Of a stretch of 64,000 nt of DNA, positions 6,687 to 11,198 are shown piece by piece. Origin of the DNA: Patescibacteria group bacterium. Its GTDB lineage: Bacteria; Patescibacteriota; Minisyncoccia; Moranbacterales; UBA2206. Every line of letters starts with the position of its first letter. Positions within the stretch are counted from its first letter, which is position 1. The notes beneath the pieces were generated by a model, which was not told where the DNA came from, made no database searches, and saw only the letters and a list, made by a program, of their open reading frames with translations. The stretch is from positions 323,016-387,015 of the forward strand of contig JAKLFF010000001.1 of the NCBI GenBank assembly GCA_022711335.1, written 5' to 3'. Both the position numbers and the translations under genes were made by a program.

Positions 6687-7027
6687 ATGCCTACCAAAAA
6701 ACGGGGAATAAATCCCCGAATTTTGTATTTAGTAAATCACAAATTTTTGCGGTTCCCCGAACTAATGTTCAGGGCCGTTAACCTATCGTTAACGGAGTCC
6801 TTTAAGAGTCTATCGGTGTGTATACTTGCACACCTAGGGATTATATAGCTCCCATGGGCATTGCTGTTCCTTTGAATAAATCCAAAGGTCGACCAGCGGA
6901 TAGAATCTACATTCCACAACGCTAGGTTTGACCCTATGCGTCTTTGTGTGAAATGCTCTCAGATTCTACCAAATTCTCCCTAGAAAGGAGGTGATCCATC
7001 CACAGGTTCCCCTACGGATGCCTTGTT

Positions 7028-7865
7028 CATGTTTTCTCCAAACGTGTTTCCACGGGCATGGACTATATCTTCACCCCGATTAAATCGGGGGCCAACGTGT
7101 AGTCTCTACGGGGTCAAAGGTAGCTTGTAAACCATATTGGGATGCATATAAGGAAAAACTAATTCCTTAAATTTATTGATGTTACTAACTGGCACATAAA
7201 GCCTGCATCCTTTACTGTCCCAATTGAGATTAACTTGAAGATTAAAATTACGCTTCAAGCAATCAATCAGTGACCTATTTTCATCCCTCGAAAAACTGTG
7301 AGTGCTTATAGTAATGGTTTTCTTAGAAGTACTAAGACTGCCATCATCCATAAACCACACAGCCAAACTTATTGGATCAACGAAAATTTCTTTAATGTTT
7401 TTTGGAATAATTTTCTTCCCAACAGGATAGAATATCTCTCGATACTCTGTAAGTTGATAGTGAGAAATGGTTCTAAATCTGAACGACCGATGCTGCTGCA
7501 AATATTTCGGTTGAGTAAGAACCCAATCTTCAAATATTCCAGCAGTCCATAAGACATAGTCTTTATGTTCAGCTTTTTGTTCCACCTGCAATCTATAACT
7601 TTTTCCCGTTAAGGTAGAAATTAGAGAACCATCGCCTAAAATTTTTCCCACCAAAACTCCTTTTTGGATTTCAGTGAGATTTAGACTACTTCTAATATTC
7701 CTAACAATTTTCGAGTTCCAATTTTTTATACCTCGACTTCCCACGGTATTACCATAAGCTAATTATGTCTTAATTTTAACATAATTGTAGCTGTTAGGCT
7801 TCACCGTTACAGTTGGGTTTGTCGTGAGGATTGCTCCTCAAGGTCGCAACGATTAGTGTAATCAA
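7028..7865 (-). mobile_element. Intron in 16S rRNA (~E. coli position 1506) carrying a LAGLIDADG homing endonuclease gene
   Basis: Exon sequence CCTTGTT | ACGACTTCACCC is split by ~838 nt, and an ORF lies wholly inside the insert. Confidence 0.8.
7106..7744 (-). CDS. LAGLIDADG homing endonuclease (double-motif, single-chain type)
   Basis: Two LAGLIDADG motifs: ILGDGSL (N-terminal) and FMDDGSL (C-terminal). 212 aa. Sits entirely inside the 16S insertion. Confidence 0.85.
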   Translation of the reverse strand: MGSRGIKNWNSKIVRNIRSSLNLTEIQKGVLVGKILGDGSLISTLTGKSYRLQVEQKAEHKDYVLWTAGIFEDWVLTQPKYLQQHRSFRFRTISHYQLTEYREIFYPVGKKIIPKNIKEIFVDPISLAVWFMDDGSLSTSKKTITISTHSFSRDENRSLIDCLKRNFNLQVNLNWDSKGCRLYVPVSNINKFKELVFPYMHPNMVYKLPLTP

Positions 7866-7954
7866 ACGACTTCACCCTTATCATCGATCCCACCCTGGTC
7901 CCTGCTTTGAAACAGGGCCTTCCGGTGTTACCGACTCTCTTGGTGTGACGGGCG

Positions 7955-8405
7955 ATTATCTTTGAGAAACTTCAAATTGATGTTCCCATCGCGCCTGCGG
8001 ATTTCCCGCACGCGACGAGCTCTAATGCATTTTAATTTCAAAGTCACATTTAAAAAATGAAATATAATTTCTTATGCAATTGAGTAAGTCCTTCACCTTT
8101 AATAAAGTTACTACGACTTAGCTGACTTCTTATAAAGTCATAAGTTTCTTGGCTTTATAAGATCTCCCGGGGTTATATATTATTCCATTCCTGACATTCC
8201 AACGCATCGAGTCTAGGCATCTTCCCTAACCTCACCACCCAATCATAGGTCGATGCGATGCTTTTTATTGTTGGACTGCCGTTTGTTTCCAGGTCCTTCA
8301 CCGCATTGCTCGCGCAATGCGACTACCTTTCAACTACGCTCTCGTGACGAACGAGAGGGAGAGATTTTAACTCTCTTAAACAATACACTGCCCGGCGCTT
8401 TTATT
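7955..8405 (-). other. ORF-less ~450-nt insertion (putative intron) in the 16S 1390s region
   Basis: GGTGTGACGGGCG and GTGAGTACAAGATCCGAGAACGTATTCACCG, contiguous in all 16S genes, are separated here by ~450 nt of GC-moderate structured sequence. Confidence 0.5.
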
Positions 8406-8635
8406 GTGAGTACAAGATCCGAGAACGTATTCACCGTGACATGGCTGATTCACGATTACTAGTGATTCCGGCTTCATGAGGTCGAGTTGCAGACCTCAAT
8501 CCGAACTGAGACCAAGTTTTTGGGATTAGCTCCGCCTTGCGGCTTGGCAACCCTTTGTCTTGGCCATTGTAGCACGTGTGTCGCCCAGGGCGTCAAAGGG
8601 CCACGCTGATCTGACGTCATCCCCGCCTTCCTCCC

Positions 8636-8830
8636 AGAACTTTGCACGCGAAACGTGCAAAGTAAATCCGAAGCACGAAATCCTAAATCCAAAACAAATT
8701 CAAATAATAAAATTTAAATTTTCAAAACGTATTTGTTTTGAATTTTAAAAATTAGAATTTTGAAAATTGTTTGGGATTTCGATATTCGAATTTCGAATTT
8801 ACTTTGCGCTCTCGCGCAAAGTTCTGGGCA
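8636..8830 (-). repeat. ~190-nt AT-rich hairpin insertion in 16S (copy 1 of a duplicated element) closed by a GC-rich stem
   Basis: The insert is flanked by complementary arms CAGAACTTTGCACGCGAAACGTGCAAAGTAAAT / ATTTACTTTGCGCTCTCGCGCAAAGTTCTGG. Its ~110-nt core is ~85% identical to 10330-10445. Confidence 0.5.
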
Positions 8831-9709
8831 GTCTCGCGTGACATAGTAACACGCGACAGGGGTTGCGCTCGTTTCCTGACTTAACAGAACACCTTACGGC
8901 ACGAGCTGACGACGACCGTGCAACGCCTGCTTAGCACCCTCGAAGGCTTATCTGTTTCCAGATAATGCAGCTAAGTTTCAAGCCCTGGTAAGGTTCCTCG
9001 CTTATTGACGAATTAAACCACATGCTCCACCACTTGTGCGGATCCCCGTCTATTCCTTTGAGTTTTAGCCTTGCGGCCGTACTTCCCAGGCGGCAGACTT
9101 AACGCGTTAGCTACGACACCGGAAGGGTCGATTCTCCCGATACCTAGTCTGCATCGTTTAGGGCGTGGACTACTGGGGTATCTAATCCCATTCGCTACCC
9201 ACGCTTTCGCATCTCAGCGTCAGAAAAGTGCCAATCAAATGCCTTCGCCTTTGGTGTTCCATATGATATCAACGCATTTCACTGCTACACCATATGTTCC
9301 ATTGATCTCTCACTTTCTCAAGATATGCCGTTTCAAATGCAGTTTTCGAGTTGAGCTCGAAGATTTGACATCTGACTAACATACCCGCCTACATGCGCTT
9401 TACGCCCAATAAATCCGGATAACGCTTGAGGTCTCTGTATTACCGCTACTGCTGGCACAGAGTTAGTAACCTCTTATTCAATCGGTACCGTCAAATTGTG
9501 CCTCACTATTGCTTTGTAATTTTCAATTTACAATTATCAATTTTCAATAAATTTACAATTTATTAATTTCCAATTTTCAAATCGTCATATTGATAATTGA
9601 AAATTGAATCTTGATAATTTTTTGTAAATTGTAAATTGGTAAATGTAAATTGTTTTTTTAGGAATTGAATGGAGATTGCGAGACCGCGAGGTTCCGCAAT
9701 CCCGCAGTT

Positions 9710-9928
9710 TTAATCGGCATAGTCATCGCCCAATAATGCTCTCTTGTGAGCTTCTCTGGCTTGAGCTAAGGTTTCGAATTTTTTTCCCGAATAACATTCT
9801 TTCCATTTTGATGAAAAAGGCTCCTCAAGGCTTTCAATCTTTTTTGTTTCCGCATTATAGCGAAATTTGACAAAGGAACTGCGACTAAGTTGCATTTCTC
9901 CCAGCCCGAAATATTTTTTCTCTGTCAT
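9710..9928 (-). CDS. 72-aa ORF inside the 16S insertion (hypothetical; could be non-coding)
   Basis: ORF only. No homing-endonuclease motif (LAGLIDADG, GIY-YIG, HNH) seen. Confidence 0.2.
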   Translation of the reverse strand: MTEKKYFGLGEMQLSRSSFVKFRYNAETKKIESLEEPFSSKWKECYSGKKFETLAQAREAHKRALLGDDYAD

Positions 9929-9990
9929 ACATCATCCTTTCTTTGCCATTAGAATTGTTGTAGACAACCTCAATTCAATCCCTAATTGAC

Positions 9991-10046
9991 TTGTCATCCT
10001 GAAATCGTTTCAGGATCTAGATGCTGAAATAAATTCAGCATGACAA
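9991..10046. repeat. Small inverted-repeat element copy A (TTGTCAT ... TCTAG ... ATGACAA, two internal hairpins)
   Basis: TTGTCATCCTGAAATCGTTTCAGGATCTAGATGCTGAAATAAATTCAGCATGACAA. The 7-bp terminal inverted repeats and the TCTAG core are shared with 35234-35313. Confidence 0.5.
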
Positions 10047-10320
10047 AGCCACCAAACAATAGTGAGACACAATTTCTTCCCGATTAAAAGCGGTTTACAA
10101 CCCAAGGGCCTTCATCCCGCACGCGGCGTCGCTCCATCAGGCTTTCGCCCATTGTGGAATATTCTCGACTGCAGCCACCCGTAGGTGTTTGGACAGTGTC
10201 TCAGTTCCAATGTTGGGGGTCACGCTCTCACGTCCCCTACCCGTCATAGCCTTGGTGAGCCTTTACCTCACCAACAAGCTGATAGGACACAGGCCGCTCT
10301 CTAAGCGCTGTATACAGCGC

Positions 10321-10452
10321 AAAAATTCGAAATTTGAATATCGAAATCCAAAACAAATTCAAATACTTAAATTCAAATGTCCAAAACATAGTTGTTTTGA
10401 ATTTTGAAAATTAGAATTTTGATATTGTTTAGAATTTCGAATTTCGCGCTTC
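10321..10452 (-). repeat. ~130-nt AT-rich hairpin insertion in the 16S 5' domain (copy 2 of the element at 8636-8830)
   Basis: The core CGAAATCCAAAACAAATTCAAATA...GTTGTTTTGAATTTTGAAAATTAGAATTTTGA...TTCGAATTTCG is shared with 8680-8800. Confidence 0.5.
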
Positions 10453-11198
10453 GGATTTCTGTGCTATATACGGCTTTACTTCGTAAAGCTTATCATGTAT
10501 TATTTCTCCTTTCGAAGAATTATTCATGACTTAGAGGTACGTTCCTATGCATTACTAACCCGTTTGCCATGGGCCTAAACCCATGCGACTTGCATGCCTT
10601 ATCCACGCCGCCAGCGTTCATCCTGAGCCAGGATCAAACTCTCAATGAAAATCGAAATTTCAAATCGCGAAGCGATGCAGAAATTTCGCTAGTTTCATTA
10701 GACTCCGTGATTCCGCGGAGCGGAATTTTACGGGGTCAAAAAACCAGATATTAAAAGAAAATAAATTCTTTGAGTTCCCGACGCAAAGGTCGGGATAAAT
10801 TGAATAGACTCTAATTGTCCGATCCCGCTTAGCGGGACCAGACGAGGACTAATCGCAAAAAATTGTGATTTACCCCGTGATCGCGTGCGCGATTTTACGG
10901 GGTTTCGTCCAAATCTTTCCAATGACTTAAAAAGATTTGAACTATTTAATTTTAAAAGTTCTTGCTTTTTGTGTCGAACCGTTTGACAAGCTCACAGCGA
11001 ACAAAAAACACATCCTTATGCGCAATTTTATTACACGCAAGGATGTATTTTATATCACCCGAATTTTAAAGTAATTTTGAGCCTTTAATTACTGCCGTTT
11101 TGGTCTTAAATAATTATATGCAACTCGTGATATCTATATTAGCAAATACACAAATGCTGTCAACCCCTAATTTTATCATCTTAAAAAATACGTTAAAT

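Follow-up and report, generated by a model that had tools for sequence, protein, structure and literature searches.

Ribosomal RNA (rRNA) genes rich in insertions are a hallmark of bacteria of the Candidate Phyla Radiation (CPR). In a survey of 380 CPR 16S genes, 48% carried insertions of at least 100 bp; the maxima were 16 insertions in one rRNA gene and 5,627 bp of inserted DNA in one 16S gene (mean 1,075, standard deviation (SD) 1,043) (Tsurumaki et al. 2024, PMC11270868). Here we describe the 16S rRNA gene encoded in a 64-kb stretch of DNA (64,000 nt, hereafter the window) from contig JAKLFF010000001.1 of a Patescibacteria group bacterium. Two introns and three hairpin insertions swell this gene from 1.46 to 3.67 kb, and the locus is very probably a functional 16S gene of Candidatus Moranbacteria that carries a group I intron, a group-II-like intron and three hairpins resembling intervening sequences (IVSs).

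Several described kinds of sequence are close to these insertions. In CPR bacteria, group I introns at 16S position 1498 (site 16IS10) encode LAGLIDADG_2 proteins of ~210 amino acids (aa), and group-II-like insertions were found only at position 1400 (site 16IS9; n = 53), with LAGLIDADG_1 in 39 cases, no open reading frame (ORF) in 14 and a reverse transcriptase in none (PMC11270868); the survey words the latter class as 'reminiscent of group II introns', 'including partial hits'. A further intron of this region, the IIC-LHE intron rns-1396 in the 16S gene of Thiotrichaceae, has no reverse transcriptase; its domain IV carries a LAGLIDADG gene of the single-motif type (Salman et al. 2012; PMC13190283). 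The short non-intron insertions of CPR rRNA genes resemble IVSs processed by RNase III, according to literature summaries that include PMC11270868. In Helicobacter fennelliae, the 16S IVS lies in the 5' domain, is AT-rich and ORF-less, has ends paired over more than 20 bp, and contains segments homologous to 23S IVSs in opposite polarity (PMC3335488). Outside rRNA genes, the Rickettsia palindromic elements (RPEs) of ~100-150 nt occur in intergenic DNA, protein genes and a stable-RNA gene; among the 526 copies of R. bellii, 53 lie in ORFs and a single one lies in the transfer-messenger RNA (tmRNA) gene.

Architecture and integrity of the 16S rRNA gene

The whole window was scanned with the Rfam covariance models, and the only RNA gene returned was a bacterial small-subunit rRNA (SSU_rRNA_bacteria, RF00177) on the minus strand, with a score of 1181 bits against a threshold of 50. 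Motif coordinates and regional covariance-model scans placed this gene at 10649..6984 (3,666 nt), close to the 6984-10650 (~3.65 kb, at least five insertions) given by a first-pass annotation of the same DNA. All of the universal 16S blocks, which that annotation had described as present but discontinuous, were found, distributed over six exon blocks (Table 1). The five insertions account for 2,202 bp and have 27-41% GC, and the spliced 16S comprises 1,464 nt at 51% GC, compared with 39% GC for the window.

The default whole-window alignment was wrong at the 3' end. It packed model positions 1-1533 into 10649..8354, pushing the last ~130 model positions into insertion ii and misplacing the true 3' end, as the true exons with helix 44 (h44), h45 and the anti-Shine-Dalgarno sequence lie 400-1,370 nt beyond the end of the call. 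When positions 6900-8420 were scanned alone, h44 emerged at 7951..7865 (model 1394-1490, 43 bits) and h45 at 7021..6997, and the anti-Shine-Dalgarno 3' end GGATCACCTCCTTTCT is located at 6997..6982. An automatic annotation would therefore truncate this gene at 8354. The boundaries of insertions i and ii are exact, since related contig L015 is uninterrupted at both sites, reading GAAGTCGT|AACAAGG at the site of insertion i and CTTGTACTCAC|CGCCCGTC at that of insertion ii.

The exons carry one change that could have been taken as damage. In the 519 region, a TA in place of GG had been noted as a mismatch to the universal 515/519 primers. The change was confirmed, as C525U at 9448 with C526A at 9447, and the primers mismatch because the window lineage carries compensated 505/526 and 506/525 pairs in the 530-loop pseudoknot. 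The pairs are G505-C526 and G506-C525 in Escherichia coli, three Moranbacteria relatives combine U505-A526 with G506-C525, and the window lineage has U505-A526 and A506-U525, such that the 505-507/524-526 pseudoknot has been kept through two successive compensatory double changes. Judged by this alignment, the TA change is covariation and not damage, and the preservation of the pseudoknot by double changes argues strongly against pseudogene status.

Contigs were fetched from independent assemblies (ENA, JGI and Logan) via the 72-aa ORF in insertion iv or the endonuclease ORF in insertion i. Contigs L013 and L014 match the gene at 100% identity across all 3,666 nt, and L016 does so at 99.9%; contigs L017, L019 and L020 are 100% identical over 2,445, 1,618 and 1,224 nt, respectively. 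Because the gene is identical across independent assemblies and its pseudoknot has been kept by compensatory changes, it is functional, and the locus is the working 16S rRNA gene of an uncultured Moranbacteria (CPR) bacterium, from a group whose insertion habit was already known. The CPR origin suggested in the first-pass annotation is borne out by the closest named 16S relative, Moranbacteria RIFOXYA12_FULL_35_19 (GCA_001784965.1, contig L001), the exons of which are 88-96% identical. That annotation overstated the insertion load in placing it at the upper end of the CPR range: five insertions and 2.2 kb lie ~1 SD above the published CPR mean, above average and not extreme, with the published maxima being 16 insertions and 5,627 bp.

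The reading of the locus given above is built on insertion boundaries, homologies, folds, covariation and population-level conservation. On this reading, three mechanistically different kinds of extra sequence interrupt the 16S gene, all of which would be removed from, or tolerated in, the mature rRNA. Because the 515/519 site is mutated and the usual primer sites are separated by 2.2 kb of inserted DNA, amplicon surveys and automatic rRNA annotation would overlook organisms of this kind or size their genes wrongly.

The insertion at position 1498

Insertion i occupies the junction AAGUCGU|AACAAGG, after U1498, eight positions away from the site of ~1506 initially proposed; its length, given as ~838 nt, was right. 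The end of the upstream exon, GUCGU, pairs with the guide GCGAC (7847-7843) to form P1 with a U.G pair at the splice site (as judged by inspection only), and the P1 extension UGAUUA/UAAUCG is conserved in three homologues with a variable loop. The terminal base of the insertion is G (...AAACAUG|AACAAGG), with the boundary set by the empty site in L015, and the canonical J8/7-P7 sequence GAAGAUAUAGUCC is found in the 3' part. In comparison with the homologues in L001 and L004, P2 changes from GAGGA/UCCUC to GGGGA/UCCCC and P8 from C-G to U-A, both of them compensatory changes.

The 212-aa ORF within insertion i matches Pfam LAGLIDADG_2 (PF03161) with E=3.8e-41. It also aligns with I-SceI (PDB 1R7M; E=1.1e-22) over residues 10-211, pairing LGDGS with LGDAY and FMDDGS with FMDDGG, so that both acidic motifs align. 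I-SceI is a monomeric, two-motif enzyme; the ORF had been called a double-motif LAGLIDADG endonuclease, and with this full-length homology the call is right, though Pfam counts one domain. A search for homologues returned 584 proteins; among the matches listed the closest are from Moranbacteria, and the named homologues among the 120 listed all belong to CPR lineages. In the NCBI database the ORF is entered as a 181-aa 'hypothetical protein' from a Candidatus Moranbacteria metagenome-assembled genome (MAG), on a 471-kb contig.

By these sequence criteria, insertion i is very probably a group I intron that encodes an I-SceI-like monomeric enzyme, inserted at the known CPR site 16IS10. The intron would self-splice by means of the P1 guide pairing, the splice-site U.G and the terminal G. 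Its endonuclease would cut intron-less 16S DNA at position 1498, with ...GGGTGAAGTCGT|AACAAGGCATCC... as the predicted target, after which the intron would be copied into the cut site by repair (homing).

In L001, a further insertion of ~1,022 nt (3165-4188) encodes a 253-aa LAGLIDADG_2 protein at position 742 of the spliced window gene, a site that is empty in the window. Intron content thus differs site by site between close relatives.

Helix-tip insertions and a palindromic repeat element

Insertions iii, iv and v correspond to gaps in the covariance-model alignment at the loops of h40 (model 1158-1162), h17 (457-465) and h10 (208-213), respectively. In each, the 5' and 3' ends of the insertion pair into long stems, and the native helix loop is replaced. 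The fold of insertion v has a minimum free energy (MFE) of -59.2 kcal/mol (z -7.7 vs shuffled sequences) and that of insertion iii an MFE of -84.3 (z -10.8), with each forming a ~90-bp hairpin; insertion iv gave z -9.4. The first-pass annotation had described insertion iii as a long hairpin of ~190 nt closed by GC-rich arms, which agrees with its 184 nt and flanking GC hairpins. For the other two the descriptions held, with the 72-aa ORF, the inverted repeat, the AT-rich repeats and the helix-tip location in insertion iv and the location of insertion v in the 5' domain, at h10, but the lengths of ~520 and ~130 nt fell short of the 567 and 162 nt found.

All three helix-tip insertions are built of period-7 repeats, as identified with Tandem Repeats Finder (TRF). 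Insertion iv is nested, and consists of a basal stem (10065-10051 with 9517-9503), a 56-nt inverted repeat, a 328-nt module and a 136-nt AT-rich heptamer palindrome. By eye, a ribosome-binding site is plausible for the 72-aa ORF in the module. Pfam gave no match to this ORF at E<=1, and its sole match among 5.8 billion proteins is itself, so that it is not validated as a gene. At gathering thresholds the whole-window Rfam scan placed no family on insertions iii, iv or v, and a scan relaxed to E<=1 over 6800-9300, a stretch that includes insertion iii, placed on that insertion only spurious matches to the plant microRNAs MIR841 and MIR869.

As a separate observation, the 7-nt periodicity extends to all of the AT-rich helix-tip insertions, including the unrelated-looking h17 palindrome and, by eye, the h17 insert of L001 (2673-2848). 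The heptamers involved include ATTTCGA, AATTTAC, TTGTAAA and TTTTGAA.

We compared the helix tips with those of relatives (Table 1). The basal stem of h17 is also present in L001, as GUGUCUCACURUU/AAUAGUGAGGCAC, and the GC hairpins that flank insertion iii, CTTTGCGCG..GCGCAAAG, are common to L001, whose core differs. Since h17 and h40 are also expanded in relatives, on shared basal stems, these two helices are hypervariable expansion sites of the lineage. Insertions iii and iv would accordingly be lineage-typical expansions and not single clean insertions, which goes part of the way towards the alternative, raised in the first-pass annotation, that relatives carry these segments as conserved expansion helices: the basal stems are the same and the cores differ. 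In the same comparison, the h10 insertion is lineage-specific.

A profile of the repeat arm was then used to search the window. Exactly four arms were found, two inverted arms of ~62 nt in each of insertions iii and v, and no third copy of the element was found elsewhere in the 64 kb. The element has two ~62-nt inverted arms of nine 7-nt repeats, the conserved core TTTGAATTTGTTTTGGATTT and the fixed termini AAATYCG...CGRATTT. Insertions iii and v are 83% identical overall and 90% identical over the central 79 nt, in line with the ~85% first estimated for their cores. The outer arms of insertion v correspond to those of insertion iii in reverse complement (26/27 and 22/27 nt by eye; 94% reverse-strand match). 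With outer arms inverted and centres co-oriented, the h10 and h40 copies are mosaics and not simple duplicates.

Copies outside the window were found via an exact word, so that the census of the family depends on the word chosen and includes some matches by chance, such as the eukaryote-like contigs L037 and L065. Over 130 loci with the palindrome family were retrieved; they come from MAGs of many phyla and are for the most part intergenic. A 22-mer of the element retrieved 13 loci from GTDB species-representative genomes, labelled Planctomycetota (2), Bacteroidota/Bacteroidales/Lentimicrobiaceae (4), Deltaproteobacteria (1), Gammaproteobacteria (1), Pseudomonadota (1), Methanosarcinales (1), Candidatus Falkowbacteria (1) and unclassified bacteria (2), and a 20-mer retrieved more than 119 metagenome stretches on contigs with a GC fraction of 0.29-0.66. 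The short contigs of MAGs may be mis-binned; pairs of homologous loci from independent studies agree in their labels (L025/L028, Planctomycetota; L027/L031, Bacteroidota).

Conservation among these copies reaches beyond the search word, with ~25 nt upstream and exactly three heptamers (NGNNNTT) downstream. Among 114 unique arms, similarity stops exactly three heptamers past GGATTT, at ...TTCGRATTT. The full palindromes, 13 of them distinct, measure 131-165 nt and run from AAATYCG to CGRATTT or a closely similar terminus, whereas many further copies consist of a single arm. No consistent direct repeat that would indicate a target-site duplication was found at the flanks of the 13 full elements. 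A genomic context could be assigned to 63 copies: 42 fall between genes and 21 within open frames of 120 aa or longer, some exceeding 1,000 aa. No strand bias relative to the flanking genes was seen (14 same, 17 opposite). The element was not seen in many copies per genome: there are two in the window, and few extra copies in ~0.9 Mb of family loci (about one per locus).

Stable-RNA genes are among the locations of the family. A 415-nt insertion (7342-7756) in the 23S gene of a Candidatus Falkowbacteria contig (L032, 3800-7962) holds a family member, and the same locus is present in L041. Another copy is located ~10 nt upstream of a tRNA-Ala gene; this arrangement was seen in one locus type only (L021, L081), and a family-wide association with tRNA genes was rejected. 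A viral origin was likewise rejected, with 0 matches in two scans of viral contigs. The palindrome had no blastn match in plasmids or phages, a search in which the BLAST low-complexity filter may hide sequence of this kind. Literature searches with strings of the element sequence found nothing relevant, and nothing on miniature inverted-repeat transposable elements (MITEs) in CPR bacteria.

Two further observations on these loci are recorded here. The Falkowbacteria 23S insertion sits at the loop of a GAACGUC/GACAGUUC helix (model ~2621-2625), and blastn points to two more segments of that gene as related. Copies inside very long frames (1,100 aa in L119/L134, 558 in L035/L036, 553 in L039 and 808 in L026) are on the strand where the arm reads AAATCCGAAATCC..., giving a peptide rich in K, S, E, I, R and N; these could be in-frame insertions into protein genes, of the kind known from RPEs, or ORF over-calling.

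We tentatively regard the h10 and h40 palindromes as members of an undescribed cross-phylum family of ~136 nt that settles in intergenic DNA and stable-RNA genes (16S helix tips, the Falkowbacteria 23S gene and a tRNA leader), and perhaps in long ORFs, a reading that is quite possible although the chances are somewhat against it. If it is true, at least part of the 'uncharacterised short insertions' of CPR bacteria would be a promiscuous, horizontally spreading palindrome and not home-grown expansion segments. A family that is real and mobile would also link rRNA intervening sequences to general dispersed repeats and explain similar hairpins at unrelated rRNA sites.

The family also bears on how one gene came to hold two copies. 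In the first-pass annotation, an element was thought to have colonised the same gene twice, and a related ~136-nt element is indeed present in two helices, but it is not private to the 16S gene. Alternatively, the h10 copy could be a recent intragenic duplication of, or gene conversion from, the h40 copy, which we consider possible if rather doubtful. The two copies are each other's best match (79% outside the search 20-mer), besides being most alike at their centres and having no third counterpart in the window, but the margin over unrelated metagenome copies (74-77%) is small, and the copies are mosaics, with the h10 copy resting on its own unique 13-bp stem. Going by the sequences, two arrivals from the widespread family, or an ancient duplication, would account for the copies as well as recent copying within the gene would.

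The fate of the helix-tip insertions in the transcript may be predicted from their form. Because their paired ends form long stems as in classical IVSs, excision by RNase III without religation is the most likely outcome. By analogy with those IVSs, RNase III would cut out the h10, h17 and h40 hairpins and leave the 16S rRNA in up to four pieces of ~178, 244, 677 and 365 nt. The main competing view is that the insertions are kept in the mature 16S as expansion segments extending h10, h17 and h40 outward. All three do extend the native helices coaxially from the loop, and the conserved basal stems of h17 and h40 in Moranbacteria relatives suggest a structure that is tolerated or used. Very AT-rich 90-bp duplexes are, however, typical RNase III substrates. 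The cores are moreover hypervariable between relatives and change faster than the exons, with 5 substitutions in the h40 element and 0 in the exons of strain L009. CPR rRNA insertions are also removed from transcripts, according to a review's citation of Brown et al. (2015). We thus consider retention unlikely and RNase III excision the probable fate.

The insertion at position 1400

Insertion ii splits the strand of the decoding centre, and had been described, without a class, as an ORF-less insertion of ~450 nt at a site in the 1390s; it is 451 nt long and free of ORFs. Homologous insertions occupy the same site in L004 (449 nt, without an ORF) and L001 (906 nt). The extra ~455 nt of the L001 intron encode a 144-aa LAGLIDADG_1 protein just upstream of a domain-V-like helix, and a remnant of this ORF, GTGACTTTGAAATT, survives in the window copy and in L004. 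The intron of the window has therefore lost its endonuclease gene by internal deletion.

The ends of insertion ii, AAUAAAAG...GAUAAU, ruled out a group I intron. Near the 3' end, all 14 pairs of the domain-V-like helix form in all three sequences, with one C-G to U-A double change; its base triplet is CUC/GGG, not AGC or CGC. Taken with the domain-VI-like helix (Table 1), 19 of 19 pairs form in the three sequences with five double-sided changes, a result equalled by 1 of 500 shuffles. Alignment of the 5' 400 nt with the relatives shows many compensatory helix changes. From this homology, insertion ii would belong to the CPR 16IS9 class as an ORF-less derivative, with the 'group II intron' label only partly verified. 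Having lost its endonuclease, the intron would now be immobile, with a ribozyme-like fold and its domain V/VI-like helices kept. Since it divides the decoding-centre strand, we infer that it must be spliced and the exons religated.

Several points weigh against the reading of the locus as a functional 16S gene with a group I intron, a group-II-like intron and IVS-like hairpins. The intron models that had been suggested for checking the insertions matched both introns, but below threshold: RF00028 matched insertion i at 7247..7040 with 25.1 bits (E 7e-4, threshold 50), and RF01998 (group II domains D1-D4) gave a partial match to insertion ii at 8151-8088 with 29.1 bits (E 0.006-0.01, threshold 35). 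The domain V/VI model RF00029 had no match in insertion ii even at E<=10. A GUGYG 5' end is also absent from insertion ii, as all three homologues start with AAUAAAAGCGCC. 'Group II' accordingly denotes, for this insertion, a resemblance and a homology to the published class, as opposed to a proven ribozyme. Splicing, homing and RNase III excision are predictions for the window gene, and contigs L015, L008 and L018, as mosaics of 99-100% and 80-92% identical segments, show the empty sites in a relative only and may be chimeras.

Some of these points would also fit insertion ii not being derived from a group II intron, and being instead an unclassified structured intron or a spacer that splits the 16S into two functioning pieces. 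The missing GUGYG end and the model results favour this view, and the published survey itself hedges the class (PMC11270868). It is nonetheless improbable. The 3' end combines a hairpin of 9 bp, a 2-nt bulge, 5 bp and a GAAA-type loop with a short covarying helix and a terminal AU, which is the layout of D5-D6; the LAGLIDADG_1 ORF of L001 is at the domain IV position, as in the bacterial IIC-LHE rns-1396; and the ribosome would probably not tolerate an unligated break in the 1399-1400 strand, which is universally conserved. We thus retain the assignment of insertion ii as a group-II-like intron.

Relatives, mosaic contigs and flanking DNA

Three of the contigs related to the window gene are mosaics. 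L008 is 80-90% identical to it in the 5' part and 99% in the 3' part, L015 is 99.3% identical in the 5' part and 92% in exon 4, and the 37 differences of L018 are confined to ~300 nt of exon 3; these contigs are either assembly chimeras of co-occurring Moranbacteria or real recombinants. As mosaics, L015 and L008 were rejected as intron-less alleles of the window strain, and L018 was dropped as a gauge of constraint on insertions vs exons, as its clustered differences mark a mosaic or chimeric contig. Mosaicism among the contigs with the 16S gene, and intragenic repeats that could mislead assemblers, might prompt the suspicion that the locus is a pseudogene or an assembly artefact, but this is hardly credible, given that the same five-insertion gene was recovered by different assemblers and projects (L013, L014, L016 and L017, with L019 and L020 identical over shorter stretches and L018 departing only in the exon segment), all conserved blocks are intact and the pseudoknot covaries.

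No 23S, 5S or tRNA gene was found within the 64-kb window, which leaves the 16S gene separated from the other genes of the rRNA operon. Upstream it is flanked by genes for a GH1 glycosidase and a seryl-tRNA synthetase, and downstream by a 255-aa ORF and a Fic-domain gene. The DNA directly 3' of the 16S gene varies among otherwise identical strains (window ~4500-6980; L013 8192-9124; L007 3331-4269; L014 8243-10219), with a tyrosine-recombinase (Phage_integrase) gene in some and the 255-aa ORF with a Penicillinase_R/Fic gene in others, including the window, which suggests that the 16S 3' end is an integration hot spot. GC-containing hairpins upstream of the gene (~10700-10900) and a similar one downstream (~6700-6760) share the form CCCGTAAAAT..stem..ATCACGGRGT (for example 'gaccccgtaaaattccgctccgcggaatcacggagtc' and 'ccgtaaaatcgcgcacgcgatcacggggt'), and could represent processing stems or another small family of repeats.

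Table 1. Coordinates of the 16S rRNA gene, its insertions and the elements within them (window positions), with the state of the three helix tips in related contigs
Feature	Position	Strand	Details
16S exon blocks	10649-10472, 10309-10066, 9498-8822, 8637-8406, 7954-7866, 7027-6984	-	universal motifs, spliced sequence
Insertion v	10471..10310	-	162 nt, h10 tip
Insertion iv	10065..9499	-	567 nt, h17 tip
Insertion iii	8821..8638	-	184 nt, h40 tip
Insertion ii	8405..7955	-	451 nt, between C1399 and C1400
Insertion i	7865..7028	-	838 nt, between U1498 and A1499
LAGLIDADG_2 homing endonuclease ORF, 212 aa	7106..7744	-	motifs GKILGDGSL and VWFMDDGSL
Domain-V-like helix of insertion ii	7985..8019	-	9 bp, 2-nt GG bulge on 3' strand, 5 bp, GAAAU loop
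Domain-VI-like helix of insertion ii	7961..7976	-	five pairs, four changed on both sides across 3 sequences
Palindromic element, h10 copy, 136 nt	10323..10458	-	nhmmer arms 10385-10324 and 10396-10457; termini AAATCCGAAG...TTCGAATTT; TRF period 7
Palindromic element, h40 copy, 137 nt	8664..8800	-	nhmmer arms 8725-8665 and 8737-8799; termini AAATTCGAAA...TTCGGATTT
Small inverted repeat I1 in insertion iv (two similar hairpins)	9991..10046	-	28-nt arms, 82% complementary, 0 nt spacer
Module in insertion iv	9658..9985	-	21-nt inverted repeat I6, 9658-9678 with 9965-9985, 86% complementary; holds 72-aa ORF
GC hairpin I16 in module of insertion iv	9674-9701	-	inverted-repeat search
Orphan 72-aa ORF	9710..9928	-	ORF list; putative gene only
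AT-rich period-7 palindrome in insertion iv	9518..9653	-	TRF AATTTAC x9.3, ATTGAAA x4.4, TTGTAAA x4.6; inverted repeats I2-I5
530-loop pseudoknot	9447..9468	-	U505/A506 at 9468/9467; U525/A526 at 9448/9447; covariance-model alignment
h10 in relatives			window 162 nt (v); short in L001, L004 and L008; in L015 v present in 99.3%-identical 5' segment
h17 in relatives			window 567 nt (iv); L001 174 nt, same basal stem; L004 192 nt; L008 none; in L015 iv present, 99.3% segment
h40 in relatives			window 184 nt (iii); L001 107 nt, same two GC hairpins, other AT-rich core; L004 33 nt; L008 iii identical to window; L015 different ~83-nt insert

Comparison with known systems

The gene and its relatives present a compact set of insertion states: a group I intron that is probably homing-competent, a group-II-like intron with (L001) and without (window, L004) its endonuclease gene, and hypervariable helix-tip insertions. 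They are well suited to experiments on how the ribosomes of CPR bacteria deal with interruptions in their rRNA. Most of these states have counterparts in the CPR survey, which likewise reports LAGLIDADG_2 proteins in group I introns at 1498, group-II-like insertions at 1400 that include ORF-less ones, and short AT-rich non-intron insertions in less conserved helices (PMC11270868). In the survey, the short insertions are left uncharacterised, with no word of palindromes, hairpins or repeats, whereas here two of them belong to one repeat family that is also found outside rRNA genes.

For the introns, the enzyme of insertion i resembles I-SceI, which is encoded in a yeast mitochondrial large-subunit rRNA intron, but its host intron is located at position 1498 of bacterial 16S rDNA and not in mitochondrial 21S rDNA. 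Insertion ii, as a group-II-like intron, shares with rns-1396 a site within 16S positions 1396-1400, and its L001 homologue shares the layout; the window copy differs in having lost the ORF and in beginning with AAUAAAAG in place of GUGYG.

For the helix-tip insertions, the IVSs of Helicobacter and Campylobacter offer a precedent, as there too one element occupies several rRNA sites in either orientation, including the 16S region equivalent to h10. Here, in contrast, both copies are in one 16S gene, they are built of heptamers, and most of their relatives lie outside rRNA genes. Insertion iv recalls the 23S IVS of Coxiella burnetii (PMC4990558), a helix-tip insertion with a small ORF; the Coxiella ORF belongs to the S23p/23S_rRNA_IVP family, whereas the 72-aa ORF is without a relative. 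Among dispersed repeats, RPEs are confined to one genus and reach a high copy number per genome, whereas the palindrome family found here is spread across many phyla at low density and has heptamer arms. Two features appear to be new in comparison with these systems, namely the presence of the same element in two helix tips of one 16S gene, and a low-density heptamer family that crosses phyla and lies mostly outside rRNA genes.

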